From an uncultured Planctomycetia bacterium (lineage in GTDB: Bacteria; Omnitrophota; Gorgyraeia; Pluralincolimonadales; Pluralincolimonadaceae): a DNA stretch of 64,000 nucleotides. Location of the stretch: contig CAZYUB010000007.1 of the NCBI GenBank assembly GCA_964650515.1, forward strand, positions 20,837 through 84,836, written 5' to 3'. Below, one piece after another: positions 20,120-64,000 of the stretch; position 1 is the stretch's first letter; each line of letters starts with the position of its first letter. Position numbers and translations under genes: made by a program. Below the pieces are notes generated by a model. It made no database searches, had not been told where the DNA came from, and saw only the letters and a list, made by a program, of their open reading frames with translations.

Positions 20120-20177
20120 TTGACGGGGCATGCCTTAGGTGGTATACAATAGGTATGCATTGGTGTATACAGGTATA
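20120..20177 (+). promoter_or_regulatory. TTGACG-17-TATACA promoter followed by four 11-bp-phased GGTATA repeats (site A)
   Basis: GGTATA-like cores at 20141, 20152, 20162/5 and 20172. Same architecture as 23440 and 24332. Confidence 0.55.
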
Positions 20178-22620
20178 TAACAGGAACAGGCGCGGCGCAG
20201 CCCTGATCATGACGGTGGGGGTGCTCAGCATGCTCGTGCTCATAGGCGTCTCGTTCGCCGCTACTACGCAGGCCATATACAGGGAGGCAAGGAATTACTC
20301 CAATTCCGTGAAGGCGAGATACCTCGCCGAAGCGGGGATAGCGAGGGCGATAGCCGAACTCCGCTGCGGCGCGGAAGGCGCGGTATCGGACGCGGTAGAT
20401 ACGCAGGCGGAGGGCTGGTATGCCGGATATTCCGCCGTTCTCGGCGGCGGCAGGTACCAGGTGAGCGGCACGGATTGCGCGGCCAGGATATATATAAACG
20501 ATACCAACCCGAACCTCAGCGCCATGCTTGAAAACCTCACGGCGGCACTCATATCCATGGACGAGCCGCTTTCAGCCGGGGACGGCGCCGCGATAGTATC
20601 GAACCGGCCGGCCGAAGGTTATATGAGCGAGCAGGAGGTGGAAGAGCCGTTCAGGCCTTACGTTACCGTAAGGGCGTTCCGGGATACGGCCGTCTATTCG
20701 AACGCTTCGCCTTTTCCGGCAGTCCCGAGGGCGCCCGTAAACGTCAATACCGCTTCCAAGCCGGTACTTAAAGCCGTCCTGTCCGGAATAGAAGCGCTGC
20801 ATATGTGCCCGAGGTGCGGAGGCGACGGGACGATATTCGCCGCAAGCGCGTGCCCGGATTGCGGGGGGACCGGCGGCCTAAGGATCACCTCTGCGGAGGC
20901 GGATGGGCTCGCGGACTACATAATTGCGAACCGCCCGTATTCGACATGGGGCCAATTCTATAACTCGATAAAATCCTGCGCAAGTATAGGAGCGCAGGAC
21001 GCGGACCTCGTGATGGCGAACGCGAACCCGAACGCGGGATTCGCGCCCGGGGCGCGCAATTACGGCTGGGCAAGCGGCGCGGGGCGTATCGGCAAAGATA
21101 TCGACCCGGCGGACAGCGGACGCGGCCTTACAACTCACACGACGGAATTCTGTTTCAATTCGGGGGGATATTACGATATCGTCTCGACCGGGACGGTAGA
21201 GGCAGGCGCGGGGACGGTCGTGGCTTCAAGGAGCATAAGGTCTGTCGTGAAGATATTCGATATCTGGAGGCAGACAACGCAGTCGGAATTCCAGGCGGGC
21301 GCCATGAGCGGCCTGCAGAGCTATCCGGAGCCGATAGGCGCGGGCATAGCGCCGGCGGCGTTCGACGGGCAGCTGATGCTCGCGACGAACGAGGACCCGT
21401 CCACCGCCAATACGCTGCTGAGGGCAAGCTTCAACGACGGGCTCGACCTCGATTCGGCGGCGAACGCGAATATCGTCAGGGATCCGGCGAGCACCTGCTC
21501 CGTGGGGAGCGTGGCCGACGCGTCGGACCCGGGCAGCTTACTGCCGGACGGCGTCTTCGTCAACAAAAAGTCCAACGATTACATATCGTTCATGGAGAAC
21601 TGGAGCGGCACCTATAACATGGCGAAGGCGGACATGGGGACGCTTTCGCTCTGGGTCAAAGCCGTATCCGGCGGAGAGGTGTATTCGGGGATGAGCTTCT
21701 CCGGTTACGAGATAGACACGTACGGCAACGGGCATACTGACGGCGGCCCGCCGTGGGATTTTTCGCTCTTCGAGATACACCCGAGCGGCTTCATTCCCGG
21801 CTCTCCGTTCGGCGACTGGAACTGGTGGAGGCCGGGTTACGCGAACAGGACGGAGGTATGGTTCTACGAACAGTGGGACGCCGCCCTGCCCGAGAGGCCT
21901 ATCGGATTTATCGGGTTCCAGGAGGTCGGAAGCGGCATCGGCGGTGGCAACGTCTCGCAGATAATGAGCACAGGCCGCGCGAGGAAGAACTGGGCGCCGG
22001 GCACATGGCACCATGTCGTCTTCACGTATGAATTGAGCAATCCCGCCGACCCGAACTGCATGACGGGGACTAAGAAGATATACATAGACGGCGCCGAGCC
22101 CCCGCATTACGCCTATGACACGATATACCACCGGCTTAACGGCGATGTCCGCGACATTACCCTCGGCACGTCGGACATCAATAACAGCCATTCAGACGGC
22201 ACCTATATAATAGACGAGTTCAGGTCGGAGCACGCCTGCGCGACGGCCGCGCAGGTCATGGCGGAATTCGCGTCCGGCAGATATTACGATAACAGCGACG
22301 CGGAATTCACGTCGTCAGCGTTCGACGCTGGAGAAGCGCGCATCGGCACGGTATCGTGGACTGAACACATGCCCGCGAGTGTCGCCGGAGGCGATATACG
22401 ATTCGATATAGACAACGGCTCGGGATGGCTCGGCGGGTATGCCGCGCGCAACGACCCAGCGGGATCCCCCGTGGACGCGATGACCACCGGGACGAACCTT
22501 ATAAGGTATAAGGCGTATTTCGTGAATTCGGGTACGGGGCTTACCGATACGCCGGTCCTCGATGACGTGACCGTCACTTATTTGAGAAGGGCGGAAATAC
22601 TTTACTCAAGGGAGGAATGA
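20155..22620 (+). CDS. PilX/GspK-like N-terminus (RRGAALIMTVGVLSMLVLIGVSFA) fused to a large secreted domain with a Cys4 knot and a C-terminal LamG/ConA-like lectin domain
   Basis: Minor-pseudopilin-like N-terminus; CPRCGGDG..CPDCGG; WHHVVFTY..KKIYIDG LamG signature; C-terminal RYKAYF..TPVLDDVTVTY module shared with the giant ORF at 59871. Start uncertain (ATG 20155 lies inside the repeats; alternative ATG 20209). Confidence 0.6.
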   Translation: MHWCIQVYNRNRRGAALIMTVGVLSMLVLIGVSFAATTQAIYREARNYSNSVKARYLAEAGIARAIAELRCGAEGAVSDAVDTQAEGWYAGYSAVLGGGRYQVSGTDCAARIYINDTNPNLSAMLENLTAALISMDEPLSAGDGAAIVSNRPAEGYMSEQEVEEPFRPYVTVRAFRDTAVYSNASPFPAVPRAPVNVNTASKPVLKAVLSGIEALHMCPRCGGDGTIFAASACPDCGGTGGLRITSAEADGLADYIIANRPYSTWGQFYNSIKSCASIGAQDADLVMANANPNAGFAPGARNYGWASGAGRIGKDIDPADSGRGLTTHTTEFCFNSGGYYDIVSTGTVEAGAGTVVASRSIRSVVKIFDIWRQTTQSEFQAGAMSGLQSYPEPIGAGIAPAAFDGQLMLATNEDPSTANTLLRASFNDGLDLDSAANANIVRDPASTCSVGSVADASDPGSLLPDGVFVNKKSNDYISFMENWSGTYNMAKADMGTLSLWVKAVSGGEVYSGMSFSGYEIDTYGNGHTDGGPPWDFSLFEIHPSGFIPGSPFGDWNWWRPGYANRTEVWFYEQWDAALPERPIGFIGFQEVGSGIGGGNVSQIMSTGRARKNWAPGTWHHVVFTYELSNPADPNCMTGTKKIYIDGAEPPHYAYDTIYHRLNGDVRDITLGTSDINNSHSDGTYIIDEFRSEHACATAAQVMAEFASGRYYDNSDAEFTSSAFDAGEARIGTVSWTEHMPASVAGGDIRFDIDNGSGWLGGYAARNDPAGSPVDAMTTGTNLIRYKAYFVNSGTGLTDTPVLDDVTVTYLRRAEILYSREE

Positions 22621-27905: not shown

Positions 27906-27908
27906 CGC

Positions 27909-41668: not shown

Positions 41669-42652
41669 GAGGGAGCCGGCTGCGCAGGGGTCGAACATGA
41701 GCTCGTCATTGCGGAGTATCTCGGGGATGCCGCCTTTATTGCTCGCGAGGCAAGGGATCCCGAGCGCGAGCGCCTCGAGGAGGGCGAGCGGGCAATCGTC
41801 ATGTAGGGAAGGCAGGACGAAGAGGCCTGCCGACTTAACGATATCAAGCCGGTCTTCCCTCGCGCCGGCGAATATTACGCTGCCGCTTATCCCGAGCGAT
41901 ACCGCGAGTTCCTTGAGGCGGGCCATCTCACTGCCGTCTCCCACCAGTATGAGGTACCCTCCGGGAACGGAAGCCGCGCAAAACTCCCTCAATAAGAAAT
42001 CCACATTCTTCCTCGGTATCAAAGAACCGCAATACGTGATGACAAAGCTTCCTTTCGGGATTCCGAATTCCTTCCAAAGGTCGATTATCTTTGCGTTGTC
42101 GATATCATCCTGAGCCGGGCGGTTCGGGGATATGCCGATATCCTTTTTAAATCCGTAGTATTTGCGCGCCCTTTGCGCGAGGTCTTTTGATACGGCGAGT
42201 ACGCTCACCGCGCAGCGTATGCCGACAAAACCGTATAACCTTAGGGCCAGCGCGACAGGAGGAGAGAGGCGCCTGCTCCTGATAAGATGTTCCATGCTTC
42301 CTTCCATCAAAAGGGTGGTCTTCGCTCCGCAGAGGATGGCAGCGGGAGCGCAGAGCGCGGCGAATTCCTCGTTGTATACGACGAAGTGTTTTATCCCGTG
42401 TCTCACCGCTATGAAAAATATAAATAAAGGGCTCAGCGCGTAAAATACAGCGTAGAATAAAAGCTCGTTCCCGCAATAGAAGGGGAATTTGTGGAAGGTG
42501 ATCCCGCGGCGCTCTTCGCCGAAGAATGGCTTTGACGAAAGATAATGCGCCTCGACGCCTTTATCGGCAGCCGCTTTTACGGCAAGGGAGAGCTGGCGGA
42601 AGCATCCGCCCTGTTTCGGGTAAGGGTATAGTGTGAATATCGCTGGTTTCAT
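41639..42652 (-). CDS. Glycosyltransferase family 1/4
   Basis: GT-B C-terminal motifs (E-x7-E-like region, GIPCLASNKGGIPEIL). The last 6 codons are read through the REP flank. Confidence 0.7.
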   Translation of the reverse strand: MKPAIFTLYPYPKQGGCFRQLSLAVKAAADKGVEAHYLSSKPFFGEERRGITFHKFPFYCGNELLFYAVFYALSPLFIFFIAVRHGIKHFVVYNEEFAALCAPAAILCGAKTTLLMEGSMEHLIRSRRLSPPVALALRLYGFVGIRCAVSVLAVSKDLAQRARKYYGFKKDIGISPNRPAQDDIDNAKIIDLWKEFGIPKGSFVITYCGSLIPRKNVDFLLREFCAASVPGGYLILVGDGSEMARLKELAVSLGISGSVIFAGAREDRLDIVKSAGLFVLPSLHDDCPLALLEALALGIPCLASNKGGIPEILRNDELMFDPCAAGSLSKKLGAKKS

Positions 42653-45002: not shown

Positions 45003-45005
45003 TTT

Positions 45006-48457: not shown

Positions 48458-49097
48458 CGCTCGTTATCCTTCCGCCCTCCATCACGATAGTGCGGCCGCA
48501 TATCTTTTTTATGCTCCCGGTGTCGTTTGACACGAAGAATATCGTCTTGCCGGCCCTTTTCAGTTCGGAGAGTTTCTTGAAACACTGTTCCTGGAAACCG
48601 GTATCGCCGACAGCGAGGACCTCGTCTATAAGCAAAATACCGCCGTCAATATGGACAGCGACGGAGAAGGATACCCTGGATATCATGCCATGGGAGAGCT
48701 TGAGCACCTGCGCGTCGACCATCTCGCGTACGCCGGCGAAATCCACGATATCATCGAAGATCTTCTTCGCGTTCTTCCTCTTAATGCCGAATACGGCGGA
48801 AAGAAGGTATATGTTCTCCTTGACGCTCAGGTTGAAATTCAACGCGCCCTCGACCCTTATGAGCGGCACGACCCTGCCGTTTACCGCGGCCTTTCCGGAC
48901 GTCGGTTCCGTGATTCCGGCGATGAGCCGCATAAGCGTCGTCTTGCCGGAGCCGTTGGGCCCGGTGACGCCCACCGATTCGCCGCGGTCCACGGAAAAGG
49001 AGACGTCTTTCAGCGCCCAGAGGTAGTCATTCCTGCTGAAGTAATATTCGCCCTTATGGAACCTCTTGCTGACATTCCTGAATTCTACGGTTTTCAT
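48447..49097 (-). CDS. ABC transporter ATP-binding protein (Wzt/TagH-like polysaccharide export)
   Basis: Walker A GPNGSGKTT, signature LSHGM, Walker B LIDE. Confidence 0.85.
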   Translation of the reverse strand: MKTVEFRNVSKRFHKGEYYFSRNDYLWALKDVSFSVDRGESVGVTGPNGSGKTTLMRLIAGITEPTSGKAAVNGRVVPLIRVEGALNFNLSVKENIYLLSAVFGIKRKNAKKIFDDIVDFAGVREMVDAQVLKLSHGMISRVSFSVAVHIDGGILLIDEVLAVGDTGFQEQCFKKLSELKRAGKTIFFVSNDTGSIKKICGRTIVMEGGRITSDGA

Positions 49098-49933
49098 GGC
49101 GCTAGTATGTCCGCTATGTTCTTTTCGCTTGCTTTGAATATATAGTACCCGGCAACGAAGACCGTTATTGATATCACCGAAGCTATCGTGATGGAAAGCA
49201 GGTCCGGCGCGCAGTTATGCAACAGCGCCTTCCTGTAGCCGTCGAGGATCCCGGCCATCGGGTTAAGGAAATAATACGGCAGCAGCGCCTTGTCGACCAT
49301 GCCGACCGGGTATCCGACGGGCGAGGCGAGCATCCAGACCTGGAGCAGTATGGGCATCGCGCTTTGTATGTCGCGGAAATAGACGTTCAACACCGAGACG
49401 ATAAGGCACACGCCTATCGTGAACATCAAATGCACCGCAAATACCGGGACCACGTACAGGGCGTTTATCCCCACCGGATAGCCGTAAAGCGCGAATACCG
49501 CCGCAAGCAGCGCGGAAGATACCATGAAGTCCGCGAGCGTCGCGAGCACGGAGCCGAGCGGCACGGTTATCTTGGGGAAGTTGATCCTCGTTATCAGGTT
49601 GAAATTGGAGTTGAGGCAGTTGACCGCGAAACCCACCGAGGACGAGAAGAATATCCACGGGACTATCGCGGTGAAAGCGAAGACCGGATACGGCGCGCCT
49701 TCCGACTGCACGCCAGCGACCTTCGAGAATACGACGGTGAACACCGCCATCGTCATCAGCGGGTTGATTACGGCCCACGCGGCCCTGAGGTACCTTTGCT
49801 TGTACCTTTGCTTGAGGTTGACGAGGCCGAAGGCGATTATGAGCTCGTGCCAGTTCCTGATGCTTGATAAGAGAGAAAATGGGTTAGGCATTTTGATGTA
49901 ATTCATTATATTACAAATATATGCGGGGTTCAA
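49094..49933 (-). CDS. ABC-2 type transporter permease (Wzm/TagG-like)
   Basis: 6 TM segments; ABC-2 family pattern. Confidence 0.8.
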   Translation of the reverse strand: MNPAYICNIMNYIKMPNPFSLLSSIRNWHELIIAFGLVNLKQRYKQRYLRAAWAVINPLMTMAVFTVVFSKVAGVQSEGAPYPVFAFTAIVPWIFFSSSVGFAVNCLNSNFNLITRINFPKITVPLGSVLATLADFMVSSALLAAVFALYGYPVGINALYVVPVFAVHLMFTIGVCLIVSVLNVYFRDIQSAMPILLQVWMLASPVGYPVGMVDKALLPYYFLNPMAGILDGYRKALLHNCAPDLLSITIASVISITVFVAGYYIFKASEKNIADILAP

Positions 49934-52688: not shown

Positions 52689-53273
52689 ATGCCAAGAAAA
52701 CCCAGACATTTGGTTGATAACGGTTTTTATCATATCATGAGCAGGGGCCACAACAAGTGTGAGCTGTTTTATTCGCGAAAGGATTACGAGAAGTATAAGA
52801 ACTTAATCGTTGAATATAAACAAAAGTTTCCTTGCGATATCTACCACTATTGTTTTATGCCGAATCACGTCCATATTGTATTAAAAATAATACGCGGAGA
52901 TGATCTACCGGAACTCATGCAGCGGATTAATCAGGGTTATGCTCGGTATAACAAGAGACTGCGCGGAACAGTCGGAAATCTATTTCAGGGGAGATATAAG
53001 GGCCTTATCATCGAAACGGAGGGGTATTTACTGGAGTGCGGCAGATATATAGAAAGAAATCCATTAAAATCAGGATTAGAGAGCAACCTGCTGCGGTATC
53101 CTTTTTCCAGCTTCAGTTTCTATGTGAAAGGGGATAGAGATGAAATATTGACTCCAAACCCGCTGTATTTAGAGTTGTCCCGCTCCGAAGAGGAGAGGAG
53201 GAGGATTTATGCAGAGTATGTACTCAAGGAAAGGATGGAAGAGCATGTTAAGAGCATTAACTCAGGATCATAG
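52689..53273 (+). CDS. tnpA: IS200-like / REP-associated tyrosine transposase (HUH Y1)
   Basis: HUH motif PNHVHIV with upstream YHIMSRGH and catalytic Tyr region (RYIERNPLK). Confidence 0.85.
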   Translation: MPRKPRHLVDNGFYHIMSRGHNKCELFYSRKDYEKYKNLIVEYKQKFPCDIYHYCFMPNHVHIVLKIIRGDDLPELMQRINQGYARYNKRLRGTVGNLFQGRYKGLIIETEGYLLECGRYIERNPLKSGLESNLLRYPFSSFSFYVKGDRDEILTPNPLYLELSRSEEERRRIYAEYVLKERMEEHVKSINSGS

Positions 53274-53443
53274 CGCACCATTTAGGGGCAAGAGCTGAGG
53301 GTGTCCCCCCGGAGGATGGCTCCTTCGTATTTTTTTGTTGACAAGTTATTGTGATTATGATAACTATAATACAAAATATATAAATCATAAGAATGGCAGT
53401 TATGGTAATTACAATAACTCTGTGAGGGAAGAAGCTCTATAAT

Positions 53444-53713
53444 ATGGGCCTAAAGCAGAAGCTTATATCCGCGCAGGAGATCATCAAGAAGTACGGCATA
53501 ACCTACCAGACCGTCAACCACTACACGAATTTCGGGCTTATCAACGTAATCACCAAGAAATCGAACGTCCGGCTTTACGACGAGGAAGAGGTGGACCGCC
53601 GCCTCACGAAGATAATCCAGCTCGCCGGAGCGGGATTCCCGCTGCGCCTTATCAGGAAGACGCTCAACGACGAGCTCGCGGTGAAGGTCAACACAGGGAC
53701 GGGTGGCGCATGA
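53444..53713 (+). CDS. MerR-type HTH domain-only protein
   Basis: ISAQEIIKKYGITYQTVNHYTNFGLI; ATGA overlap with the downstream ATPase gene. Confidence 0.55.
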   Translation: MGLKQKLISAQEIIKKYGITYQTVNHYTNFGLINVITKKSNVRLYDEEEVDRRLTKIIQLAGAGFPLRLIRKTLNDELAVKVNTGTGGA

Positions 53714-54579
53714 GCTACTTCAAGATACTCGGATTGGAGAAAGAGCCGTTCTCGACAAGCCCCGACCCTGAGTTCTTCTACCAGTCGCCGGAGCATAAGT
53801 CGGCGCTTTACCGGCTGCGCATAGCCATAGAGCTCAGGAGAGGGCTGAGCTTAGTTCTCGGAGATGTCGGGACCGGCAAGACGACGTTGAGCAGGAAACT
53901 CTCGCAGCTTTTGGCCGAAGACCCGGGCCTCGTGATGGCGATGGTCCTTAATCCCGTATATGAATCTGAAAAACAATTTTTAGCGGACCTTTCGGAGCGC
54001 TTCCATATTGTGGTGGATTCGGGGAATGGGAGCGCTCCAACGTTATTGGACTACATGAAGTCGTTCGAGAAGTTCCTGTTCGAGAAGGGAGTGCAGGAGG
54101 ACAAGACGATAGTCCTGCTCATCGATGAATCCCAGAAGCTCAGCGACCCGTGCATGGAGATCCTGCGCGCGCTGCTGAACTACGAGACGAACGAGTACAA
54201 GATCCTGCAACTCGTGCTTATGGGCCAGATGGAGCTCCTGCCGCGGATAAGCAGGATAAACAACCTCTGGGACAGGATTGCGGTCAAGTATTTCATAAAC
54301 CCGCTCGAGGAAGACGAGGTCCGGGAGCTTATAAATTTCCGCCTGCATAAGGCGGGGTATGTCTCGAGAGAGCCGCTCTTCGATGATGCGGCCGTAAGGG
54401 CGGTCTTTAACCATACGCAGGGATATCCGCGCAAGATCGCGATGCTCTGCCACGACGCGCTCGAATATACCGTGATGTACAACAAGCACTGCGTCGACAG
54501 GCAGGTCATACATGACCTTATCCAACGCGAGATGAAAGCGGCGCAGGCATTCCGCTATGTCTCGCAGGCGGCGGGCTGA
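53710..54579 (+). CDS. ExeA/GspA-like AAA ATPase (AAA_22; resembles PEP-CTERM-locus secretion ATPase subfamily)
   Basis: Walker A GDVGTGKTT, Walker B LLIDESQ. About 290 aa, no peptidoglycan-binding tail. Confidence 0.6.
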   Translation: MSYFKILGLEKEPFSTSPDPEFFYQSPEHKSALYRLRIAIELRRGLSLVLGDVGTGKTTLSRKLSQLLAEDPGLVMAMVLNPVYESEKQFLADLSERFHIVVDSGNGSAPTLLDYMKSFEKFLFEKGVQEDKTIVLLIDESQKLSDPCMEILRALLNYETNEYKILQLVLMGQMELLPRISRINNLWDRIAVKYFINPLEEDEVRELINFRLHKAGYVSREPLFDDAAVRAVFNHTQGYPRKIAMLCHDALEYTVMYNKHCVDRQVIHDLIQREMKAAQAFRYVSQAAG

Positions 54580-55255
54580 TATGGCTGACACCGTATCTCC
54601 CGAAGAGAAGCTCTTTAATATGATCAAGGAAGGGAAGGATTCCGGCTCCGGCGGTGGAGTTTCAAAACCGAAGAATTCCTCGGCAGCACTCGGGGGGATA
54701 AAGAAATTCTTCGGATCTTTGAAACTTCACCCCGGCGCTAATAAGCAGGATGCCGCCTCCGCATCCGCGGCGCCCCGGATAGAGATAGACCCGGGGTCGG
54801 TGAACAGGGTGCTGTCGGTAGTCCTGCTGGCGGTCGCGAGCTTCTTCGTATATTACCTTTTCAGCACGCGGCCGGACGCGGAGAAGATAATAAAATCCGT
54901 CCCGAAAACGGATACGTCCCTGAAGGCCGAGGTCGAGAGGTTCGCGCCGCTCGAATCGTACCTCGCGGAGACGCGGAGGAGGAATATCTTCAAGCCGGCG
55001 CCGAAAGACGAGGCAAAAGGAGCGCCGACATCAAGAGAGGCGATGGAAAAACTGAAAGAAGCCGCCCGTGACCTGAAGGTTGTGGGGATCTCCTGGGGAG
55101 AGACCCCGAAGGCGCTGATCCGAAGCGAAAGGGACAAGACGACATATTTCCTGAAGCAGGGCCAGCAGGTCGGCACGACGGACGTGGATATAAGGTCTAT
55201 AACAAAGCAGAAGGTCACTATAGGATACAAGACGGAAGAATTTGAACTGCCTTAA
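54557..55255 (+). CDS. Single-pass membrane protein with C-terminal PilP/GspC homology-region-like beta domain
   Basis: TM segment VLSVVLLAVASFFVYYLF; C-terminal YFLKQGQQVGTTDVDIRSITKQKVTIGYKTEEFEL. Confidence 0.4.
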   Translation: MSRRRRADMADTVSPEEKLFNMIKEGKDSGSGGGVSKPKNSSAALGGIKKFFGSLKLHPGANKQDAASASAAPRIEIDPGSVNRVLSVVLLAVASFFVYYLFSTRPDAEKIIKSVPKTDTSLKAEVERFAPLESYLAETRRRNIFKPAPKDEAKGAPTSREAMEKLKEAARDLKVVGISWGETPKALIRSERDKTTYFLKQGQQVGTTDVDIRSITKQKVTIGYKTEEFELP

Positions 55256-56873
55256 AGGAGAAGCAAATATGAGAAGATACGCAGGGTACGCGCTAATGGC
55301 CGCAACGGTGCTGGTCGCCGCCGCGGCGATATGCCAGTGGCCGCTGCCGCTTTCGGCGCAGGACGTGTCGGGAGAGCCGCGGAAGACGCTTTCGCAGTAT
55401 GATTTCGAGGGGCTGTCGAAGAAGGTCTCGCTCGACCTGCGCGCGATGGATATAGTCGACGTCCTGAAATTCCTCGCGATAGAGGGCAACCTGAATATCG
55501 TCGCAGGCAAGGAGGTCGCCGGGCCGGTCAGCCTGCTCATAAACGACGTCGCCATAGGCGACGCGCTCGAGATGATACTGGCACTTAACAACTTCGCGTA
55601 TGAGGTGCAGGGCGGCATAATCAAGATCCTGCCGGCGAAGGACTACAAGGCGCTCTACGGCGTCGACTTCTACGACCAGAAGAAGACCGTAATACGCCGG
55701 CTGAAATATGCTTCGGCAAAGAACGTAGCCACGATGATGGGAAGCGTCAAGAGCGACATCGGCAAGATAATCTACGACGACTCGACCGGGACGATAGTTA
55801 TGATAGATACCCCCGCGAAGATAGCGGAGATGGAGGAGATAATAAACGCGTCCGAGATGCCGACCGTCACGAGGGTCCTGCCGACCGAGACGAGGGTCTT
55901 CGAGCTCAAGTACGCGCTCGCAGACAATATTAAGGAAGAGGTCAGCAAGTCCCTGACCACGGATATCGGCACGATGCGCCTCGATAAGCGGACGAACACA
56001 ATAGTCGTTACCGACCTGCCGCACCAGATGCAGAAGATAGAGACGGTCATAAAAGCGTTCGACAGGAAGACGCGCGAGGTCTTCATCGAGGCGAAGATCG
56101 TCGAGGTCACGCTCTCCGACATGTTCCAGTGGGGCATCGACTGGAGCTATATATCGCAGTATACGCGCAAAATAAACGGCGAGAACAGGAGTTACCGCAT
56201 AACTCCCGAGGCGAACCTGCCCATCGGGCTTACCGGCACATACGGCCAGCTGACGCTCGCCTCGATAAACACGGCGAACCTCGCGATGACCCTGCAGGCG
56301 CTCGACACTGTCGGCGAGACGAAGATACTTTCGAACCCGCACTTGACCGTCGAAGAGAACAGGGAAGCGACGATCAAGGTCATCGAGAAGCAGCCCTACC
56401 AGCTCGAGACGACGACCACCGCCTCCGGAGGCACCACGACGACATCGAAGAACTACGAGTTCGTCGACGTCGGTGTCACGCTAAACGTGAAGCCGCTCAT
56501 CAACGAGGACGGCTTCATCAGCATGGTCATAAAGCCGGAGGTCAGCTCGATCTCGACATGGTATGGCGGCGCGGCGCAGGCGGCGGGCTCGGTGCCGGTA
56601 GTCAAGTCGGCGAACGCCGAGACGACGGTCACGATAAAGGACGGCGTCAGCATAATCATCGCCGGCCTTATCAAGGATAATAAGACGAAGACGGTCAACA
56701 AGCTGCCGGTCCTCGGCGACCTGCCGCTCGTCGGCCTTCTCTTCAAGAATATAAGCGACGATATACGCAGGACGGAGACGGTCGTATTCCTCACGCCGAG
56801 GATAGTGCACGGCGACCAGCCGTTCCTGATGGAGAGAGACACCGCGAAACCGACAAGGGGCATAAGAGAATAA
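55242..56873 (+). CDS. Secretin (GspD/PilQ family)
   Basis: C-terminal secretin motif LPVLGDLPLVGLLFKN...TETVVFLTPRIV; N0/N1-like domains. Probable start at ATG 55269. Confidence 0.85.
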   Translation: MNCLKGEANMRRYAGYALMAATVLVAAAAICQWPLPLSAQDVSGEPRKTLSQYDFEGLSKKVSLDLRAMDIVDVLKFLAIEGNLNIVAGKEVAGPVSLLINDVAIGDALEMILALNNFAYEVQGGIIKILPAKDYKALYGVDFYDQKKTVIRRLKYASAKNVATMMGSVKSDIGKIIYDDSTGTIVMIDTPAKIAEMEEIINASEMPTVTRVLPTETRVFELKYALADNIKEEVSKSLTTDIGTMRLDKRTNTIVVTDLPHQMQKIETVIKAFDRKTREVFIEAKIVEVTLSDMFQWGIDWSYISQYTRKINGENRSYRITPEANLPIGLTGTYGQLTLASINTANLAMTLQALDTVGETKILSNPHLTVEENREATIKVIEKQPYQLETTTTASGGTTTTSKNYEFVDVGVTLNVKPLINEDGFISMVIKPEVSSISTWYGGAAQAAGSVPVVKSANAETTVTIKDGVSIIIAGLIKDNKTKTVNKLPVLGDLPLVGLLFKNISDDIRRTETVVFLTPRIVHGDQPFLMERDTAKPTRGIRE

Positions 56874-56874
56874 G

Positions 56875-57927
56875 GTGAAGGAGGTGTTGAAAATGAGGAA
56901 GTATTTCGCGCTTTTGCTGCTGTGTTTCATGACGGCAGCGCATGCCGCGGGGGCCGATGACATCGATGACGTCATAAACAGGAACCTAACAATGCGGCAG
57001 CAGGTGGACGCGCTCGAGACGAAATGTTCGTCGCTCGAGAACGAGAGGGATGTGCTTATCTCGAGGGTAAAGGAGCTGCAGAGGAAGAACGACCTGCTCG
57101 CGAGAGGCGAGGCCGCCAAGGGCATAACCGTGACCCCGGCGGAGCTCAACGAGCTCAAGAAGAAGCTCGACGACGCATCTAAGAGACTCTCTTCCGTCAT
57201 GAAGGAAAGGGAAGCGATGCAGAAAGACCTCGATAAGGCGAATAAGCAACTCTCAGACGTGGATAAGAAGATCGCCTCCGAGGTCCAGAAGAGGATGAAG
57301 GACATAAAGGCCGCGCCGGCGGTCTCCGACAGGTCCGAGGCGATCAGGGCTCTTCAAAAAGAGAATGCGGCCCTGCAGGACGAGATCAAAGGCCTGAAGG
57401 ACGCGTTGAAAAAACAGGGACAGCCGGAAGCCTCCGGGCAGAGGAGCGACGCGAAGCCGGTAAAGATAAGAGAGGCCCAGGGAGGGCCGGAGGATATCTT
57501 GCAGGCCGAGGTCCTGAGGGTCCAGCTTGACAAGCTCGAATCCGACCTGAAGAACGCGCAGAAGAACGCGGAAGACGCGAAGAAGGAGAAGCAGGCCGCG
57601 GCGGCGCAGGCGAAGAAGATGAAGATCAAGACAGATAAGGAGAGGCTCGACATGCATTTCAACCTCGCGGTCGTATATGAGAAGAACGGCATGTATGCCG
57701 ACGCGGAACGGGAGTATTACAAGTGCCTCCAGCTGGACCCGAACGACGCGGAAGTCCATTATAACCTCGCCATCCTCTATGACGACAGGATGAACAAGAC
57801 GAGCGCCGCGCTCGTGCATTACAAGAGGTACCTCGAGCTGAGGCCGAAAGGCGAGAGCTCGGAAGAAGTCAGGCAGTGGATATTCAACGCCGAACAGGAG
57901 GCAAGATTGGGAGTGGAAGCGAGATAG
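56875..57927 (+). CDS. Secreted coiled-coil + TPR protein (pilotin/PilF-like candidate)
   Basis: Signal peptide, long Ala/Lys/Glu coiled coil, C-terminal TPR repeats. Confidence 0.5.
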   Translation: MKEVLKMRKYFALLLLCFMTAAHAAGADDIDDVINRNLTMRQQVDALETKCSSLENERDVLISRVKELQRKNDLLARGEAAKGITVTPAELNELKKKLDDASKRLSSVMKEREAMQKDLDKANKQLSDVDKKIASEVQKRMKDIKAAPAVSDRSEAIRALQKENAALQDEIKGLKDALKKQGQPEASGQRSDAKPVKIREAQGGPEDILQAEVLRVQLDKLESDLKNAQKNAEDAKKEKQAAAAQAKKMKIKTDKERLDMHFNLAVVYEKNGMYADAEREYYKCLQLDPNDAEVHYNLAILYDDRMNKTSAALVHYKRYLELRPKGESSEEVRQWIFNAEQEARLGVEAR

Positions 57928-59115
57928 ATGAGGATAAGCTTCGCGGTATTATACGCGTTGGCCATAATAGTCCCGACGGCGCTCTTGGCGTATTTCGGCC
58001 TGCTGGCGGTGCGCAGCGAGAAGTCGATCGTCGAGAGGAACATGATGCAGAAATACGAGGCGATGGCAGGCCTCGTGGAAGGCGAGTTTAATAAGGCGCT
58101 CTCGGAGTCGCAGAAGGACCTGCTCGATAACCCGAAATACGTCGAGCATATGATAATAGAGCAGTCGGCTATATTCAAGGAGGACGTCGCGATACTCGAC
58201 CTGAACGGCAAGTCGCTCAGCGACGAAAAGGGATCGAAACCGGTCTTCGTAAAGCAGGTAAATGGATTTCCGTACCAGATCGCGGTATACGAGCGTTACC
58301 CGGTGGTCCTAAGCAAGATAAACGAAAGGCGGCAGAACCTATCCTTATATATCGGCATCATATACATATCAGCGTTCATGATATTAAGCGGGGCGTTCGT
58401 CACGCTCTGGGCGCTGTCGAGGCAATGGAACCTAGCGCACTTGAAGAACGAGTTCGTCTCGCACCTCGCGCATGACCTGCGCAGGCCGCTGACCTCGATA
58501 CGCATGTTCTCCGAGATGCTCAAGACCGGCCGTGTCGCGGACGACGGGAAGAGGGTGGAATATTACGGCATAATATCGAACGAGAGCGAGAAGCTCACGC
58601 TGCTCGCTAACAATATACTCGATTTCTCGCGCATAGAGATGGGGCGCAAGAATTACAGGATAAAGAAGGAAGACATCGCGCGCATAGTCAACGAGACGGT
58701 GGACAGGTTCAGGTCGTATATGGTCGACGTCCCCCGCCAGGTCTCGGTGGATATCGAGGAAGGCCTGCCGCCGGTCAACGCCGACGAGAGCGCTATATCG
58801 CAGGTCGTGATGAACCTGCTTACGAACGCGGCAAAATATTCCTCGCAGGACAGCATCATCAGCGTGAAAGTCGCGCGGACGGACAGGAACGTCGCGGTCA
58901 GCGTCGTCGACCACGGCATAGGCGTCCCGAAGAACGAGTTAAAGAGGATATTCAGGAAGTATTATCGCGTCGAGCAGGACAAGGTCTCAGCTACAGAAGG
59001 CAGCGGACTCGGGCTGACGCTTGTCAAATATATCGCGGAAGCCCACGGCGGGCAGATCCGCGCGGAGAGCGAGGAAGGGAAAGGCAGCAGGTTCACGCTG
59101 ATATTGCCTATATAA
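57928..59115 (+). CDS. Sensor histidine kinase (2 TM segments, periplasmic sensor, HisKA + HATPase_c)
   Basis: H-box LAHDLRRPLT; N, G1 and G2 boxes (NAAKYS, DHGIGV, GSGLGL). Confidence 0.88.
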   Translation: MRISFAVLYALAIIVPTALLAYFGLLAVRSEKSIVERNMMQKYEAMAGLVEGEFNKALSESQKDLLDNPKYVEHMIIEQSAIFKEDVAILDLNGKSLSDEKGSKPVFVKQVNGFPYQIAVYERYPVVLSKINERRQNLSLYIGIIYISAFMILSGAFVTLWALSRQWNLAHLKNEFVSHLAHDLRRPLTSIRMFSEMLKTGRVADDGKRVEYYGIISNESEKLTLLANNILDFSRIEMGRKNYRIKKEDIARIVNETVDRFRSYMVDVPRQVSVDIEEGLPPVNADESAISQVVMNLLTNAAKYSSQDSIISVKVARTDRNVAVSVVDHGIGVPKNELKRIFRKYYRVEQDKVSATEGSGLGLTLVKYIAEAHGGQIRAESEEGKGSRFTLILPI

Positions 59116-59116
59116 T

Positions 59117-59797
59117 ATGCATAAGATACTTGTAGTCGAAGATGACAAGAACATCCTGAAGGGGCTAGTCGACAACCTCGAGATGGAGGGCTATAAGGTC
59201 GTGACGGCTTCGGACGGCGAGGCCGCGCTCAGGAAAGCGAAGGAGGCCGCGCCGGACCTCGTCATACTGGATATCATGATGCCGAAGATGAACGGTTTCG
59301 ACGTATGCAGGCAGCTCAAGGCGAAGGGCAGCACGACGCCGATCATCATACTGAGCGCGAAGGCGCAGGAGGCCGACAAGGTGCTTGGCCTTGAGCTCGG
59401 CGCCGACGACTATGTGACCAAGCCCTTCAGCCCCAGGGAGCTGCTGGTGCGCGTTAAGGCGGTGTTGAGGAGGGCGGGCACGGCGGCGAAGGTCAAGGAC
59501 GTATATGACCTCGGCGGCATCAGGATAGATTTTAACAAATACCTTATATATAGAGGAAGCAAAGAAGAGAAGCTCACCGCGGCGGAATACAAGATATTGA
59601 AACTACTTATTGCCAACGAAGGTGAGCCGGTCAGCAGGCACACGATACTGGCGGAGATCTGGGGCGAGGATGTGACATCCCGCACGGTCGATACCCATAT
59701 CTGGAGCTTGCGAGAGAAGTTGGAAGAGGATCCGGGGAAGCCGAAGCATATCGTTACGGTGCACAGGATAGGGTATAAATTCTTGACAAGTTCTTGA
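59117..59797 (+). CDS. OmpR/PhoB-family response regulator
   Basis: Receiver domain (DD, D54 in LDIMMP, K) plus winged-helix domain (Trans_reg_C). Confidence 0.9.
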   Translation: MHKILVVEDDKNILKGLVDNLEMEGYKVVTASDGEAALRKAKEAAPDLVILDIMMPKMNGFDVCRQLKAKGSTTPIIILSAKAQEADKVLGLELGADDYVTKPFSPRELLVRVKAVLRRAGTAAKVKDVYDLGGIRIDFNKYLIYRGSKEEKLTAAEYKILKLLIANEGEPVSRHTILAEIWGEDVTSRTVDTHIWSLREKLEEDPGKPKHIVTVHRIGYKFLTSS

Positions 59798-59799
59798 CA
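59780..59799 (+). promoter_or_regulatory. Perfect direct repeat TTCTTGACA x2 with 11-bp periodicity (OmpR-family-type box candidate)
   Basis: 59780-59788 and 59791-59799, overlapping the response regulator stop codon and 72 nt upstream of the giant ORF. Confidence 0.45.
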
Positions 59800-59870
59800 G
59801 TATATTGAGATGGGGATGACAACAAAATACGAAGGATATGGCATGCTTGTAGCAGACAAAGGAGCTTACA

Positions 59871-62800
59871 ATGAATAAATCCGGTTACCGGTTTACTACG
59901 GTTGTATTGAGCTCGATACTTCTGCTTCTGAGCAGTGCCTATCTTTACATGGTATGGGCGGTGGAGACGAAGGCGTGGGATTTCGCGACGGCCTCGGATT
60001 ATACCGTCTATAAGGGCGACGGCACCGAAGATACCTCAAATACGGATATTATAATCGAGGGCGGGGTAGCCAAACTTGTATCGAGGACGACACAGATAAG
60101 CGACGATACCCAGGCCGAATATGATACCGGCGCGTATTCCTCGACATCTCCGCAGGGGCAGGACGTTTCGCTCATGCTTACGAAAAGCGGCTCGACCTAC
60201 AGCACCTCGGGTACATTCACATCCCGTGTTTTTAACGGCGCCGCAGGAAATACGTGGCAAAGGCTCTCCGCCTCACTGCAAAGCCGCGTTAATATGACAG
60301 GGCTTAACTGGACAAAGGTGGCAGGAAATCCGACCTATGCTAATGCGGTAATCTATTGGGTATATACGGGATGGTCGGACGATGGGCCAGGTATGCCTTG
60401 TGTAATCAAGGACGGCGCAGGCTATAAGGCCTACTGGACCGATTCCATCTATCGTGTTAACACCAGGTTAGGAGGTCCGGCAACATCAGATGACGGTATA
60501 ACCTTCACAAAAGTCCAGGATGTCTGCCTTGGGTTGGGCGCGGCGGGCAAATTTGACAATACCTATATCCAGTCACCCTGCGTCATTAAGGATGATACCG
60601 AGAGCGACCCGGCAAAAAGATATAAGATGTGGTATGGCGGATACGCGACCATAGGTGTCGCAGCCTGGAGGATAGGTTATGCCACTTCTGCCGACGGGAT
60701 AACATGGACGAGACAGACCGGCCCCAATACAGGCGGATCCGTGATCGACATAGGGGTAGCGGGAGACGCGGACAGCACGGGCGTTTATTTCCCGTGGGTC
60801 ATCAAGGACGGCTCGACCTACAAGATGTGGTATATGGGCACGAATGGTATAGGGTATCACCTGATGTATACCTGGTCGACAGACGGGGTAAACTGGTGCG
60901 ACGAATACGGCGCGTCCAATAAAAGAATAGCCATGTATAGCGGAGAAAACCGGTTCGACCTTTACCAGCATTATTATCCATGCGTGATCAAAGATGGTTC
61001 GCTTTATAAGATGTGGTATACAGGATACGCCGCCGGCGCATCCAGCAACGCGACCCTTGCCAGTTTCTACCAACGCATCGGTTATGCCATATCTTACGAC
61101 GGGATAAACTGGACGACGATAAACGGGGCACTGACTTCAGGATGCGTTATTGACCGCAGTACCGGATCTTGGTTTGACAGCAACTGGGCCGCGATGCCAT
61201 GCGTCATAAAGGAGGAAGACGGTTCTTATAAAATGTGGTATGCGGGTTATTATGGTTCCAATCGTCGGATAGGCCTTGCCACAAGCGCGGTAGATACCGC
61301 TGCCTCTACCGCGGTACGTTTCCAGGTCCGTTCAGGCGCCTCGGCCAGCTTGACCGGAGATTTCGTAGGCCCGGACGGCACAACATCGTCATATTATATT
61401 ATAGACAATGCTTTGCCTCCTCCCCATGGCCAAGGTTACAACACCTTGTATTGGAATACGGACAGCGTGTATTTCCCTAAGAGCGCGGCGCTTATCAACG
61501 TTCCCGGAAAGTTTAGCGTAACCGACCAGTATGTCCAGTACAGGGCATATTTTGACGGTGCCGCCGACGGCTCGCTCACTCCTACGGTAGATTGGGTCGC
61601 TTTTGAAGGAACAGGCGCCACAGGGTTTGATAACACGCTGGGAGATTTTAATAAAGGAACGCTTGCGGACGTAACCACGACTTATTCCGCGGACGGACAG
61701 GAGCCCTATATCGGCCTCGCGAAACAGCCGAACGGGCTGTATCATCCGTCCGGCACTTACACAAGCGCGGTATTCGACGGCGGCGCGGACGCCGATTGGG
61801 ATTCTGTATCATGGTCGGGCGGGAGCCAGGCGATAAGCCCGCCGGAACCCGGCCTGGTAGGACTGTACCATCTTGACGGGAATGCCGACGATTCATCCGG
61901 CAGGGGAAACCACGGGACAGCCAGCGGGACCGTTTCCTATGATACGACGGTAAAGAAATCGGGTTCGGCATGTTTTATAGGCAACGGGAACGGCTATATA
62001 ACCCTCCCGGCAACGCTCTATGAGTTTAAGGCGATGACGGTCTCGGCGTGGGTATTTTTTAACAGCACCGACACAAGCCCCGGGGGGCTTGTTGTATCAA
62101 GCTACCAGACGCCCACTTATGACAGCTTTTATTTATCTGCTTATCCGTATTACGTTTCCGCCGTAATAAAAGACCTAGGAAATGCGAGCCAAAGAAGTAA
62201 TACTATCTACTCCACACCGACGCCTTTTGGCGAATGGCATCATGTGGCGTTCACATGGGACGGCACGCCAAATGTCAATTCCCTTAAGATATATATGGAC
62301 GGCAGGGAGCAGATAAGCAAAAGCTATGACTCGCCCAGCATTGTTTTCAGGTGTATACGCAATTTTACTTCGATACCGATACATATAGGGCATTACTATT
62401 ATAGCGCTGCGCCGGCAACGCATTATTATTTTAAAGGCAAGATAGACGAAGTGGCTATCTACGACAGGGCGCTTTCGTCCGATGAGATAGACCTGCAGTA
62501 CAAGCGCGCCGCCGACATAAAATTCCAGTGCCGCTCAGGAGATGCGAATCCGCCCACAGGGAATTTCGTCGGCCCGGACGGGACGATATCAAGTTATTAT
62601 GCGACTTCAGGCGGCTCGACTTTCGGGAGCGAGATACCAACCGGCCGCTATTTCCAATACAGGGCATATTTTGAAGGGGCCGGCGCTAATACCCCCGCCC
62701 TGAAGGATGTGACGGTATCATACAATTCGGCCTCTTTCACGGATGACACAAGGACGGAATTCGACCTGGGCAGCTATGACAATTCTACCACCAGATGGTA

Positions 62801-64000
62801 TGGGGACCAGATAAGCCTTACATGTAAACCGCAACCGTTCCCCCTGGCAATAGATAGTGCGGAGACCGGCCTGCTCGCGCTCCTGCATATGGACGGAAAC
62901 TGGAACGACTCGTCAGGCAATGGAAACCACGCGACAGCACCAACCAACGTTCCGTACTTTACAACGTTTGCGAAAGTAGGGACTCAAGCCGGAGCGTTCT
63001 TTGGTGCCCACTACGCAACATTGCCTAATCTGGACCTTCCGGGATCGTCCACTATAGAATTCTGGGCCAATGACTCATACACCTTTAACTCCCATAATTC
63101 GTGTGAGCTTTACAGCGATTATAATAGCGTAACGGCAAAGGCCCAGCATCGCATATATACAACATCCTCCAACCAGCAGATAAGATTTAGCCAATACCAT
63201 ACGGACGGGTCTGCTTTGACCCTGGCTACTGTTCCAAGAAATCGCGGATTCGACACCGTATGGCACCATATAGCGGTCGTAAGGGATGACGCCGCGAAGA
63301 CGGTCGTCCTGTATGTAGACGGCAAACCCGAAAAGGCGGACAGTTATGCCGGTAAAGAAGTCGTCTCGGGCGCAACGGCCGGTAATGAAACCATAGGCAG
63401 GCTAGGAGACGTCGCGCAGAACTATGCGTACATGATCATGGACGAACTCGCCGTATATGACCGCGCGCTGACGCCTGAAGAGATCGCCCGGCACGCGGGT
63501 ATCGGCTACCCGCTACACGGCACTAATACCTTTACATCACGGACAATGGATGCCGGCCTGAGCGTAACATGGAATGATATACTTTGGAAAGAGAAAGTCC
63601 CGGGGTACGGTAACGAATTATCGGCTGAATCGACGCAGAGGGAGCTCACGTCCGAAGCGCCGGGCATAAAGGGTCTCTGGCATATGAACAACGTATGGGA
63701 TGATTCCTCGGGAAGCGGCCGCAACGGCCTTGCCCAGGGAGACGCTACTTTCGATGCCGCAGGAAAGAAGATAGGCAGCGCGTGCGGGATCTTTGACGGG
63801 ACAGGCGACTATGTCCAGGCGAGCTTAATAAACCTCGGTGACATAAAGACGGTGGAGTTCTGGGTAAATGTCACGACGAACACCCGTCCGATAATAGAGA
63901 TCCTTAACGATATGGTATATATATCGTCAGATTCCAGCAATAGGATAATAACGACAGGGTTCACGAGTCCGGTCGTATACATAAACGGAAACCAATATTC
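59871..64000 (+). CDS. Giant secreted/surface protein, 3'-partial (at least 1376 aa): N-terminal signal anchor, five PCVIKDG..YKMWY blade-like repeats (beta-propeller, GH-like fold), three LamG/ConA-like lectin domains, two FVGPDGT..YRAYF..TP.L.DVTV.Y modules
   Basis: Verified codon by codon that the frame has no stop from 59871 to the window end. The track omits it because it has no stop codon. AAAGGAG ribosome-binding site 7 nt upstream. Confidence 0.85.
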   Translation, partial: MNKSGYRFTTVVLSSILLLLSSAYLYMVWAVETKAWDFATASDYTVYKGDGTEDTSNTDIIIEGGVAKLVSRTTQISDDTQAEYDTGAYSSTSPQGQDVSLMLTKSGSTYSTSGTFTSRVFNGAAGNTWQRLSASLQSRVNMTGLNWTKVAGNPTYANAVIYWVYTGWSDDGPGMPCVIKDGAGYKAYWTDSIYRVNTRLGGPATSDDGITFTKVQDVCLGLGAAGKFDNTYIQSPCVIKDDTESDPAKRYKMWYGGYATIGVAAWRIGYATSADGITWTRQTGPNTGGSVIDIGVAGDADSTGVYFPWVIKDGSTYKMWYMGTNGIGYHLMYTWSTDGVNWCDEYGASNKRIAMYSGENRFDLYQHYYPCVIKDGSLYKMWYTGYAAGASSNATLASFYQRIGYAISYDGINWTTINGALTSGCVIDRSTGSWFDSNWAAMPCVIKEEDGSYKMWYAGYYGSNRRIGLATSAVDTAASTAVRFQVRSGASASLTGDFVGPDGTTSSYYIIDNALPPPHGQGYNTLYWNTDSVYFPKSAALINVPGKFSVTDQYVQYRAYFDGAADGSLTPTVDWVAFEGTGATGFDNTLGDFNKGTLADVTTTYSADGQEPYIGLAKQPNGLYHPSGTYTSAVFDGGADADWDSVSWSGGSQAISPPEPGLVGLYHLDGNADDSSGRGNHGTASGTVSYDTTVKKSGSACFIGNGNGYITLPATLYEFKAMTVSAWVFFNSTDTSPGGLVVSSYQTPTYDSFYLSAYPYYVSAVIKDLGNASQRSNTIYSTPTPFGEWHHVAFTWDGTPNVNSLKIYMDGREQISKSYDSPSIVFRCIRNFTSIPIHIGHYYYSAAPATHYYFKGKIDEVAIYDRALSSDEIDLQYKRAADIKFQCRSGDANPPTGNFVGPDGTISSYYATSGGSTFGSEIPTGRYFQYRAYFEGAGANTPALKDVTVSYNSASFTDDTRTEFDLGSYDNSTTRWYGDQISLTCKPQPFPLAIDSAETGLLALLHMDGNWNDSSGNGNHATAPTNVPYFTTFAKVGTQAGAFFGAHYATLPNLDLPGSSTIEFWANDSYTFNSHNSCELYSDYNSVTAKAQHRIYTTSSNQQIRFSQYHTDGSALTLATVPRNRGFDTVWHHIAVVRDDAAKTVVLYVDGKPEKADSYAGKEVVSGATAGNETIGRLGDVAQNYAYMIMDELAVYDRALTPEEIARHAGIGYPLHGTNTFTSRTMDAGLSVTWNDILWKEKVPGYGNELSAESTQRELTSEAPGIKGLWHMNNVWDDSSGSGRNGLAQGDATFDAAGKKIGSACGIFDGTGDYVQASLINLGDIKTVEFWVNVTTNTRPIIEILNDMVYISSDSSNRIITTGFTSPVVYINGNQY

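Follow-up and report, generated by a model that had tools for sequence, protein, structure and literature searches.

A secretin operon beside a giant LamG protein gene in Omnitrophota, probably a detached part of a type II secretion system

The 64,000-nucleotide stretch of DNA analysed here (hereafter the window; contig CAZYUB010000007.1 of GenBank assembly GCA_964650515.1, positions 20,837 to 84,836, from an uncultured bacterium of the Omnitrophota) carries a block of seven tightly packed + strand genes, among them a secretin gene, which probably belongs to a type II secretion system (T2SS). In order, these encode an 89-aa MerR-type helix-turn-helix protein (53444..53713; PF13411 MerR_1, E 2.7e-9), a short AAA+ ATPase of the ExeA/GspA type (289 aa, 53710..54579; AAA_22, 62 bits, and ExeA homology), a bitopic inner-membrane protein resembling GspC and GspB (224 aa, 54581..55255, within an open reading frame, or ORF, of 232 aa at 54557-55255; identified by fold and homologues), a secretin of 534 aa (55269..56873, ORF from 55242; PF00263, and PF03958 twice), a periplasmic coiled-coil/tetratricopeptide repeat (TPR) protein of 344 aa (56893..57927, ORF from 56875; several TPR families), a sensor histidine kinase (57928..59115; HisKA and HATPase_c) and, as the last gene, an OmpR-type response regulator (59117..59797; Response_reg and Trans_reg_C). 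The gene for a giant LamG-repeat protein begins at 59871, 74 nt past the block on the same strand, and runs off the window at 64000, the available 5' part encoding at least 1376 aa with two Laminin_G_3 matches. The MerR-like protein, the ATPase and the regulator are predicted to be cytoplasmic, and signal peptides are predicted for the secretin, the TPR protein and the giant protein. Profiles, homology and fold bear out the family assignments that an initial annotation of this DNA had given to the ATPase, the GspC/PilP-fold protein, the secretin and the TPR protein, as well as the kinase/regulator pair and the giant gene placed directly after them.

The starts at 54581, 55269 and 56893 were corrected on the basis of homologue N-termini and Shine-Dalgarno sites: homologues of the GspC-like protein begin MAD..., matching the ATG at 54581, and an AGGAG Shine-Dalgarno sequence lies upstream of the secretin ATG at 55269. 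After this correction the successive junctions measure -4, +1, +13, +19, 0 and +1 nt, and the sole true overlap in the block is that of the stop of the MerR-like gene with the ATPase start (ATGA). Of the overlapping junctions initially described, that between the MerR-like and ATPase genes is thus retained, and that between the ATPase and GspC-like genes becomes a spacer of 1 nt. Since the spacers range from -4 to +19 nt and a terminator scan detected no convincing + strand terminator inside the block, the seven genes look like one operon; a promoter scan yielded calls near chance level.

Block genes were scored against Pfam and NCBIfam profiles, and all long ORFs of the window against Pfam. 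The ATPase is 34% identical over 282 residues (E 6e-40) to residues 26-293 of Aeromonas caviae ExeA and has the P-loop ATPase domain of the ExeA/GspA family, with GDVGTGKT as Walker A and LLIDESQ as Walker B, both read from the sequence. A. caviae ExeA, next to which ExeB is encoded, additionally carries GspA_C39-like and PG_binding_1 (PF01471) domains; unlike it, the window protein has no transmembrane segment, C39-like domain or peptidoglycan-binding domain in topology prediction and Pfam searches, and to judge by this domain content its description as a cytoplasmic "short ExeA" form is correct. The only precedent is the short GspA without a periplasmic region known in the T2SS of Alteromonas and Pseudoalteromonas (PMC9239104). 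GspA of E. coli K-12 was discarded as the ExeA reference in favour of the Aeromonas protein, the region in common being Walker A only and the sequence too divergent, and a search of PDB sequences with the ATPase gave no match.

The best NCBIfam match of the ATPase is TIGR03015, the XrtA/PEP-CTERM ATPase model, to which the link with PEP-CTERM loci proposed initially can be traced. Under such a reading the ATPase and the TPR protein would mark an exosortase-type system, with the secretin exporting exopolysaccharide or PEP-CTERM proteins; a PEP-CTERM protein is indeed encoded at 23521-24276, glycosyltransferase genes lie 3.5 kb upstream of the block, and in one clade of relatives a GT2 gene directly precedes that of the ATPase. 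The score of 170.6 bits, however, is about half the cutoff of 324.5, and the ATPase is equally homologous to the ATPase domain of Aeromonas ExeA. Neither an exosortase, nor a TPR lipoprotein of PrsT length, nor a Wza-type exporter was found among the window ORFs scanned, the close relatives keep the module without the glycosyltransferase island, and the available part of the giant protein has no PEP-CTERM motif. Membership of the XrtA/PEP-CTERM ATPase family was accordingly rejected, the score being half the cutoff and exosortase context being absent from the window, and we consider this export route exceedingly improbable.

The 224-aa product of the third gene has no Pfam or NCBIfam match of its own, and belongs to a family of 114 members whose named representatives are nearly all Candidatus Omnitrophota, many of them with PF11356 (T2SSC). 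Common to the family are a cytoplasmic PEE[KQ]LLxLIE motif, one transmembrane helix, the sequence RRNIF and a C-terminal beta domain; in the window protein an N-terminal cytoplasmic SPEEKLFxxIKEG motif is followed by the helix (residues 72-96), an RRNIF linker and a C-terminal domain of the HR/PilP fold. An AlphaFold2 (AF2) model built from 45 sequences is confident for this C-terminal domain only (pLDDT ~90), for which the top PDB match is 3oss_C, the HR domain of GspC in complex with GspD (TM-score 0.81, rmsd 1.3 Å), followed by PilP and the HR domain of PulC. The protein therefore qualifies as an HR protein by its bitopic topology and periplasmic HR beta-domain, though not at the sequence level (PF11356/PF16537), and nothing follows the HR domain, so that PDZ and coiled-coil domains are lacking. 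An hhalign comparison of the family with Aeromonas ExeB was not significant (probability 0.5%). It appears that GspB and GspC are represented here by one protein, a hybrid that differs from GspC in having no PDZ or coiled-coil domain.

The fourth gene product is shown to be the pore component by its architecture, which comprises a signal peptide, an N0/STN-like domain (27.2 bits, just below the cutoff of 28.4), two Secretin_N domains (72.9 bits) and the secretin domain, without AMIN domains, S domain or lipobox. With 158 bits against a cutoff of 27.5 for PF00263 it belongs to the secretin superfamily, which upholds that part of the initial call; assignment at the equivalog level fails, as GspD (TIGR02517, 238.9 bits, cutoff 351.35) and PilQ (TIGR02515, 238.5 bits, cutoff 284.35) tie below their cutoffs, and the MshL model likewise falls short (182 bits, cutoff 250.2). 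The secretin could accordingly be PilQ, and the 224-aa protein PilP, of a type IVa pilus (T4aP) encoded elsewhere, the giant protein being unrelated or a pilus-associated adhesin. Apart from the tie, such a view would accommodate the search of PDB sequences, in which PilQ and GspD structures were matched about equally and the top matches were PilQ, the rank of PilP as second-best fold match of the GspC-like protein, and the frequency of T4aP (and Tad) genes in Omnitrophota (Seymour et al., PMC10066038). The lack of AMIN domains in the secretin argues against it, as does the TPR protein, which has no lipobox, unlike the pilotins PilF, PilW and Tgl.

This TPR protein has a signal peptide ending AHA/AG and, in its AF2 model, about 220 aa of long helices followed by 2.5 C-terminal TPR repeats. 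Its NCBIfam matches are weak (Tgl 41.6, cutoff 225; PilW 29.5, cutoff 154; also GltE), those to Tgl and PilW being again of the kind expected for a pilus protein, and it falls outside the TPR lipoprotein pilotins (PilF/PilW/Tgl/TadD); Foldseek searches with the coiled-coil/TPR model returned only generic (designed) TPRs and no functional lead. The histidine kinase has transmembrane helices at residues 1-30 and 137-164, which enclose a periplasmic loop of about 105 aa.

Around the block the window gives a view of 53 kb upstream and of 4.2 kb downstream, the latter lying entirely inside the giant gene. Pfam searches, tblastn with E. coli K-12 Gsp/Hof and Omnitrophota T2SS proteins as probes, and a scan of the window for prepilin N-termini of the GFTLIE type detected no GspE/PilB, GspF/PilC, prepilin peptidase or GFTLIE-type pilin in the 53 kb upstream; the absence of motor genes, initially stated for 30 kb on either side, thus holds upstream, while downstream only the giant gene is in view. 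The one pseudopilin-like gene, recognized from the outset as a PilX-like LamG protein gene, is that of an 821-aa fusion of a GspK/PilX-type minor pseudopilin-like part with LamG (20155..22620, + strand; weak T2SSK and Laminin_G_3 matches). It is matched by an Omnitrophota GspK probe in tblastn, and its N-terminus, RGAALIMTVGVLSMLVL, aligns to the GspK-like protein of L081 (E 1e-6; L-numbers are labels of related loci). Its neighbours are a cation-efflux gene and an unannotated ORF of 281 aa, and further pseudopilin genes are lacking in the vicinity. In the window there are thus genes for C-like, D and A-like components and a distant K-like one, short of a complete co-localised T2SS; given the GspK-like gene, a pseudopilus system is presumably encoded elsewhere in the genome.

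The initial annotation had concluded from this layout that the block was a stand-alone secretin gate. On that view the products of the ATPase, GspC/B-like, secretin and TPR genes would make up a self-sufficient exporter for the adjacent giant protein, with no pseudopilus or GspE/F. Such autonomy would agree with the failure to find motor genes in the 53 kb upstream, with the possession by the module of its own ATPase, with the four-gene core plus a large downstream ORF being the commonest arrangement among relatives, and with the fact that TPR and giant genes accompany the split form of the module and not the contiguous operons of the clade containing L049, L065 and L081. Nevertheless, no secretin is known to function unless an inner-membrane machine is its partner; a GspK-like protein is encoded in the window; and ATPases of the ExeA type are secretin assembly factors, not translocation motors (PMC9239104, PMC4098917). 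The remaining evidence against autonomy comes from the relatives.

A scan restricted to one genome per species yielded 80 loci which, with seven fetched earlier and the window, made up the 88 sequences searched; an exact-sequence look-up of the window secretin, for which two start codons were tried, found no record. The gene of the GspC-like protein is adjoined by that of the ATPase in 81 and by that of the secretin in 85 of the 88. A TPR homologue is encoded downstream of the secretin in 71, being absent from the contiguous-operon clade with L049, L065 and L081, and a response-regulator gene occurs near the module, mostly downstream, in 17. Directly 5' of the ATPase gene a MerR-like ORF is found in about 31 of 69 related loci, and it holds the same position within the complete T2SS operons of relatives. 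The closest relatives, the Omnitrophota metagenome-assembled genomes GCA_022710515.1 and JBAZJG01, have the same seven genes (protein identity 76-100%), after which come genes for a Rotamase_2 peptidyl-prolyl isomerase (PPIase) and a 3549-aa LamG protein. On a 1.99-Mb contig of a relative at 26% identity the MerR, ATPase, GspC-like, secretin and TPR genes precede those of a HisKA_3 kinase and a NarL-type regulator, and then those of a DUF2341 protein and a 4674-aa protein, so that distant relatives have a two-component system of another type in the same position; another relative shows the four-gene core and then large genes.

In at least 24 related loci, from several clades, the MerR-ATPase-GspC-like-secretin genes are linked to a gspE-F-G-H-I-J-K-L-M cluster, the arrangements ranging from contiguity through insertions and an inverted copy to full dispersal. 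The order in the linked clusters is GspE, GspF, GspG, H, I, J, K, a PilM_2+PilN fusion (GspL-like) and a T2SSM-like gene, and the MerR, AAA_22 ATPase, T2SSC-like and secretin genes are terminal in L049, L065, L081, L082, L093 and L095 and, in the same position, in 11 further metagenome loci. A complete T2SS locus is present in L049, L081, L093, L095, L101, L103 and others. Loci with the inner half of the system were collected separately, with a GspL-like protein as query and including a metagenome scan, and were judged where the downstream flank was informative: 13 are contiguous with the module and four (L094, L169, L171, L173) have 3.6-6.4 kb inserted between the M-like gene and MerR, as does L059 (overall range 3-6.4 kb). 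The insertion encodes Ig/fn3, PilZ and CARDB proteins in L094 and contains an inverted kinase gene in L169 and L171, which, like L059, have a TPR gene after the secretin. The module lies inverted a few kb from the inner half in L139 and L141; about 18 inner-half loci have no ATPase or secretin within 5-10 kb, and in L090 the gspE-M operon ends without a secretin. Contiguous loci fall in at least two secretin clades of a neighbour-joining tree, which is without support values.

These linkages bear on both of the alternatives still to be decided. Although the PilM_2+PilN fusion would suit a pilus, the clusters follow the T2SS order G-H-I-J-K with T2SSK, T2SSJ, T2SSG, T2SSM-like and T2SSC domains, and no PilT-type retraction ATPase was found, which makes the assignment to PilQ and PilP quite unlikely. 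Similarly, the same genes are contained in or linked to full T2SS clusters, the TPR-bearing L059, L169 and L171 included, which is difficult to reconcile with a self-sufficient exporter. Moreover, in L033, L043 and L046, which belong to the sister clade of the window, as well as in L018, four to five prepilin-type genes lie directly upstream of the ATPase gene, with no gspE/F within 9 kb. Assembly of pseudopilins requires GspE/F, and since pseudopilin genes adjoin the module there, a missing motor gene nearby does not mean a missing motor. The stand-alone gate is consequently abandoned as the favoured explanation and appears distinctly improbable: the same four genes end gspEFGHIJKLM operons, or sit a few kb away from them, in many relatives, so that the complete T2SS co-localised with this secretin, named from the start as what would speak against such a gate, has in large part been encountered.

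We therefore favour, with a probability of about 0.72, the interpretation of the block as the outer sub-assembly of an Omnitrophota T2SS, detached from the inner-membrane and pseudopilus genes and placed beside a giant LamG surface protein. Supporting it are the relatives that embed the same genes in gspE-M clusters or link them to these, the intermediate arrangements, the gspE-M operons without a secretin, the pseudopilin genes beside the module and the GspK-like gene of the window; the identities of the components also fit, namely the HR fold of GspC, the homology of the ATPase to ExeA and the known short GspA. The conserved link to a large secreted protein and the operon-like packing of the seven genes are in keeping with it as well. 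What is unusual about the locus is its layout; the machine is of a known kind. Several observations nevertheless weigh against this interpretation. The gspE, F, G and O genes were not seen for this genome or its 92%-identical relatives, and none lies in the 53 kb upstream; of 49 related species for which 8 kb or more of upstream flank is available, about 40 have neither motor nor pseudopilin genes near the module. Profile searches for GspE and the GspL-like protein matched, among module-bearing contigs, only L049, L059, L082 and L090, and the metagenome scan with the GspL-like query returned none of the known module contigs. Split modules that are paralogues of a second, complete system would be compatible with the unsupported neighbour-joining secretin tree. 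None of the secretin, ATPase and GspC-like proteins reaches the NCBIfam equivalog cutoffs, which leaves them as candidate orthologues of the proteobacterial components, and the roles of the ATPase, MerR-like and TPR proteins are proposed by analogy with ExeA/ExeB and GspB (PMC9239104, PMC4098917).

The connection of the block with the adjacent giant gene, suggested initially for this one locus, extends over dozens of Omnitrophota species, in which the block and a large secreted protein are conserved together. With flanks of 8 kb considered, a large ORF occurs downstream of the secretin in 30 of 35 species, compared with 11 of 49 upstream of the ATPase (Fisher p = 9e-9, the species not being phylogenetically independent). 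The downstream large ORFs begin with signal peptides, and their N-terminal motifs can be grouped in a few classes; the window giant has a signal peptide, a conserved N-terminal W-D-F...D-Y module, common to giants directly after the TPR gene in distant loci, and a hypervariable body. Between the window and L001/L008 the DNA is 87-90% identical to the end of the regulator gene, and most module proteins are 92-97% identical (range 76-100%), in contrast to 43-44% for the giant protein, whose ortholog in L001 has 3549 aa; for one relative, with module proteins 91-100% identical, the figure for the cargo is 43%. In the giant-gene region (59781-64000 compared with L001 16084-20675 and L008 16165-20675) identity is about 82% over the first ~330 nt, which cover the upstream spacer, the signal peptide and the W-D-F module, and then collapses; because of this drop, the probable cargo is regarded as hypervariable behind a conserved N-terminus. 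The Rotamase_2 (PpiC-type PPIase) gene of close relatives (L001 15247-16083) is missing from the window, where its place would be 59797-59871. The giant LamG protein is a probable cargo of the module, its export through the secretin being deduced from synteny. A precedent for a T2SS substrate gene beside gsp genes is found in E. coli K-12, where chiA adjoins the gsp cluster, and the cellulases and carbohydrate-binding module (CBM) proteins encoded upstream in the window are plausible further substrates.

According to the mechanism that we propose, the gspE, F, G-K, L-like and M-like genes would be encoded elsewhere and the block would be co-transcribed with its own two-component system. The HR domain of the GspC/B-like protein, whose fold is established, would contact the N0 ring of the secretin and tether it to the inner membrane, as GspC, GspB and PilP do. 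By analogy with ExeA-ExeB, the ATPase may help the secretin, from the cytoplasmic side, to assemble or to gate, for which it would probably engage the conserved N-terminal peptide of the GspC/B-like protein, while the coiled-coil/TPR protein could serve as a scaffold or cargo adaptor for the secretin. The kinase/regulator pair may control the adjacent giant gene. Finally, as conserved synteny suggests, the giant protein would be exported by Sec, after which a pseudopilus driven by GspE/F from elsewhere would push it through the secretin. In a more far-reaching version, the Omnitrophota T2SS would be modularised, the secretin sub-complex being a portable, separately regulated "cargo dock" repeatedly recruited beside hypervariable giants, with the TPR protein as cargo-specific adaptor and, as its extreme form, a motor-free system; this version is speculative and seems to us rather unlikely.

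Omnitrophota are uncultured, often ultra-small and suspected to be predatory or host-dependent, and their giant surface proteins are the main lead to their cell interactions. In its account of giant genes in this phylum, the work of West-Roberts et al. 2023 (bioRxiv 10.1101/2023.11.21.568195) describes, upstream of them, a T2SS/Tad-like locus with over 10 genes, comprising gspD/E/F, rcpC, a Rotamase_2 PPIase and class III signal-peptide genes, and a 2026 preprint repeats this association. The general association of secretion loci with giant genes is therefore already known. The word "secretin" is absent from both texts, and in the section of West-Roberts et al. on this subject there is no description of an ExeA-type ATPase, of a MerR-like, a GspC/B-like or a TPR protein, or of a splitting of the system. 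The present locus resembles theirs in the phylum, in the secretion genes placed before very large surface-protein genes and in the Rotamase_2 gene that close relatives of the window carry between the regulator and the giant gene. It differs in that, instead of a locus with gspE, gspF, rcpC and class III genes as that section reports it, only the secretin sub-module is present, with a two-component system, and in that the neighbouring protein (3549 aa in the ortholog) is far smaller than their class of more than 30,000 aa.

Among characterized systems, the block is most readily compared with GspC-GspD plus GspA/GspB (ExeA/ExeB) of Aeromonas, Vibrio and Dickeya, with which it shares a secretin with N0 and N domains, a bitopic HR/PilP-fold protein encoded beside the secretin and an ExeA-family ATPase encoded immediately upstream of the HR protein; in relatives it also ends the gspE-M operon. 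Unlike in these bacteria, a MerR-like HTH gene is integral to the operon, a coiled-coil/TPR gene follows the secretin, and the block is detached from gspE-M and has its own two-component system. The MSHA pilus likewise has a cluster in which a secretin (MshL) is joined by an ATPase of the short, cytoplasmic ExeA-like type (MshM) and by a protein with TPR repeats (MshN); the gene order is different, however, the MshL model scores below its cutoff, and the linked clusters of relatives are T2SS-like (G-H-I-J-K). Legionella has a functional T2SS (PMC6617341). Its genes (lsp) are spread over several loci, a dispersal that is similar in that the secretin and motor genes are not co-located, and dissimilar in that the module studied here, once detached, has repeatedly gained downstream neighbours, namely a TPR gene, regulators and giant cargo genes. 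That the secretin half stays beside giant, fast-diverging genes with a dedicated sensor-regulator pair provides a concrete candidate for an export route and a regulatory unit. The short ExeA-type ATPase, the MerR-like protein and the GspB/C hybrid, as conserved T2SS parts outside Proteobacteria, would widen the range of secretin assembly factors, and automated callers that require co-localised genes would miss or misclassify such a system.

The module and the inner half show further variation among relatives. Two tandem secretin genes occur in L017 (10710-13699) and L045 (10750-13695). In the clade that contains L012, L021, L025, L031, L069, L077 and L087, the ExeA-like ATPase is encoded a second time about 2.5 kb upstream, and a gene for a proline-rich protein of 556-617 aa directly precedes the module. 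In one large clade (L006, L036, L041, L052, L053, L057, L058, L061, L063, L068, L070, L073, L075, L079, L080, L083) the MerR-like gene before the ATPase is replaced by that of a GT2 glycosyltransferase of about 330 aa, ahead of which L006 has more glycosyltransferase and methyltransferase genes. The inner half is ordered gspE, L-like, M-like, gspF, G, H, I, J, K in L123, L126, L130-L133, L139 and L141, and only gspE, L-like and M-like genes are found together in L091, L098 and L118; because inner-half orders are rearranged or reduced in these lineages, the T2SS has been fragmented in several ways.

Directly upstream of the operon lies a RAYT (REP-associated tyrosine transposase) gene at 52689-53273 (NF047646, E 4e-17), after which a plausible terminator hairpin at 53310-53327 stands just ahead of the block; RAYT-like genes were also found downstream of the module in L033 and L046. 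Filamentous phages, too, have secretins, and together with the RAYT gene this had raised the idea of a phage origin. An origin from a phage or mobile element was rejected, the block being syntenic over dozens of species in chromosomal T2SS contexts.

Farther upstream, an 8.3-kb island on the - strand (41639-49933), which is absent from the close relatives L001 and L008, encodes three GT4 glycosyltransferases, a radical SAM protein, a 700-aa GT2 protein and an ABC-2 transporter pair; in L001 and L008 the rubrerythrin gene is directly followed by that of a Phenol_MetA_deg-type outer-membrane protein. A xanthine/uracil permease of the relatives is missing from the window. A cluster for cellulose and cellodextrin utilisation at 23521-39226, unexpected in a phylum discussed mainly as host-dependent, comprises the PEP-CTERM protein, which carries CBM11, a LacI/GntR-type regulator, a GH94 cellobiose phosphorylase, CBM30 proteins, a GH9 cellulase, a 960-aa GH39-like protein, an ECF sigma factor and a GH3/PA14 beta-glucosidase; the enzymes of this cluster are plausible substrates of a T2SS. 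Near the beginning of the window (676-3628), two adjacent paralogous radical SAM genes encode proteins of 497 and 488 aa, each with an N-terminal zinc ribbon of the HMPTM type.

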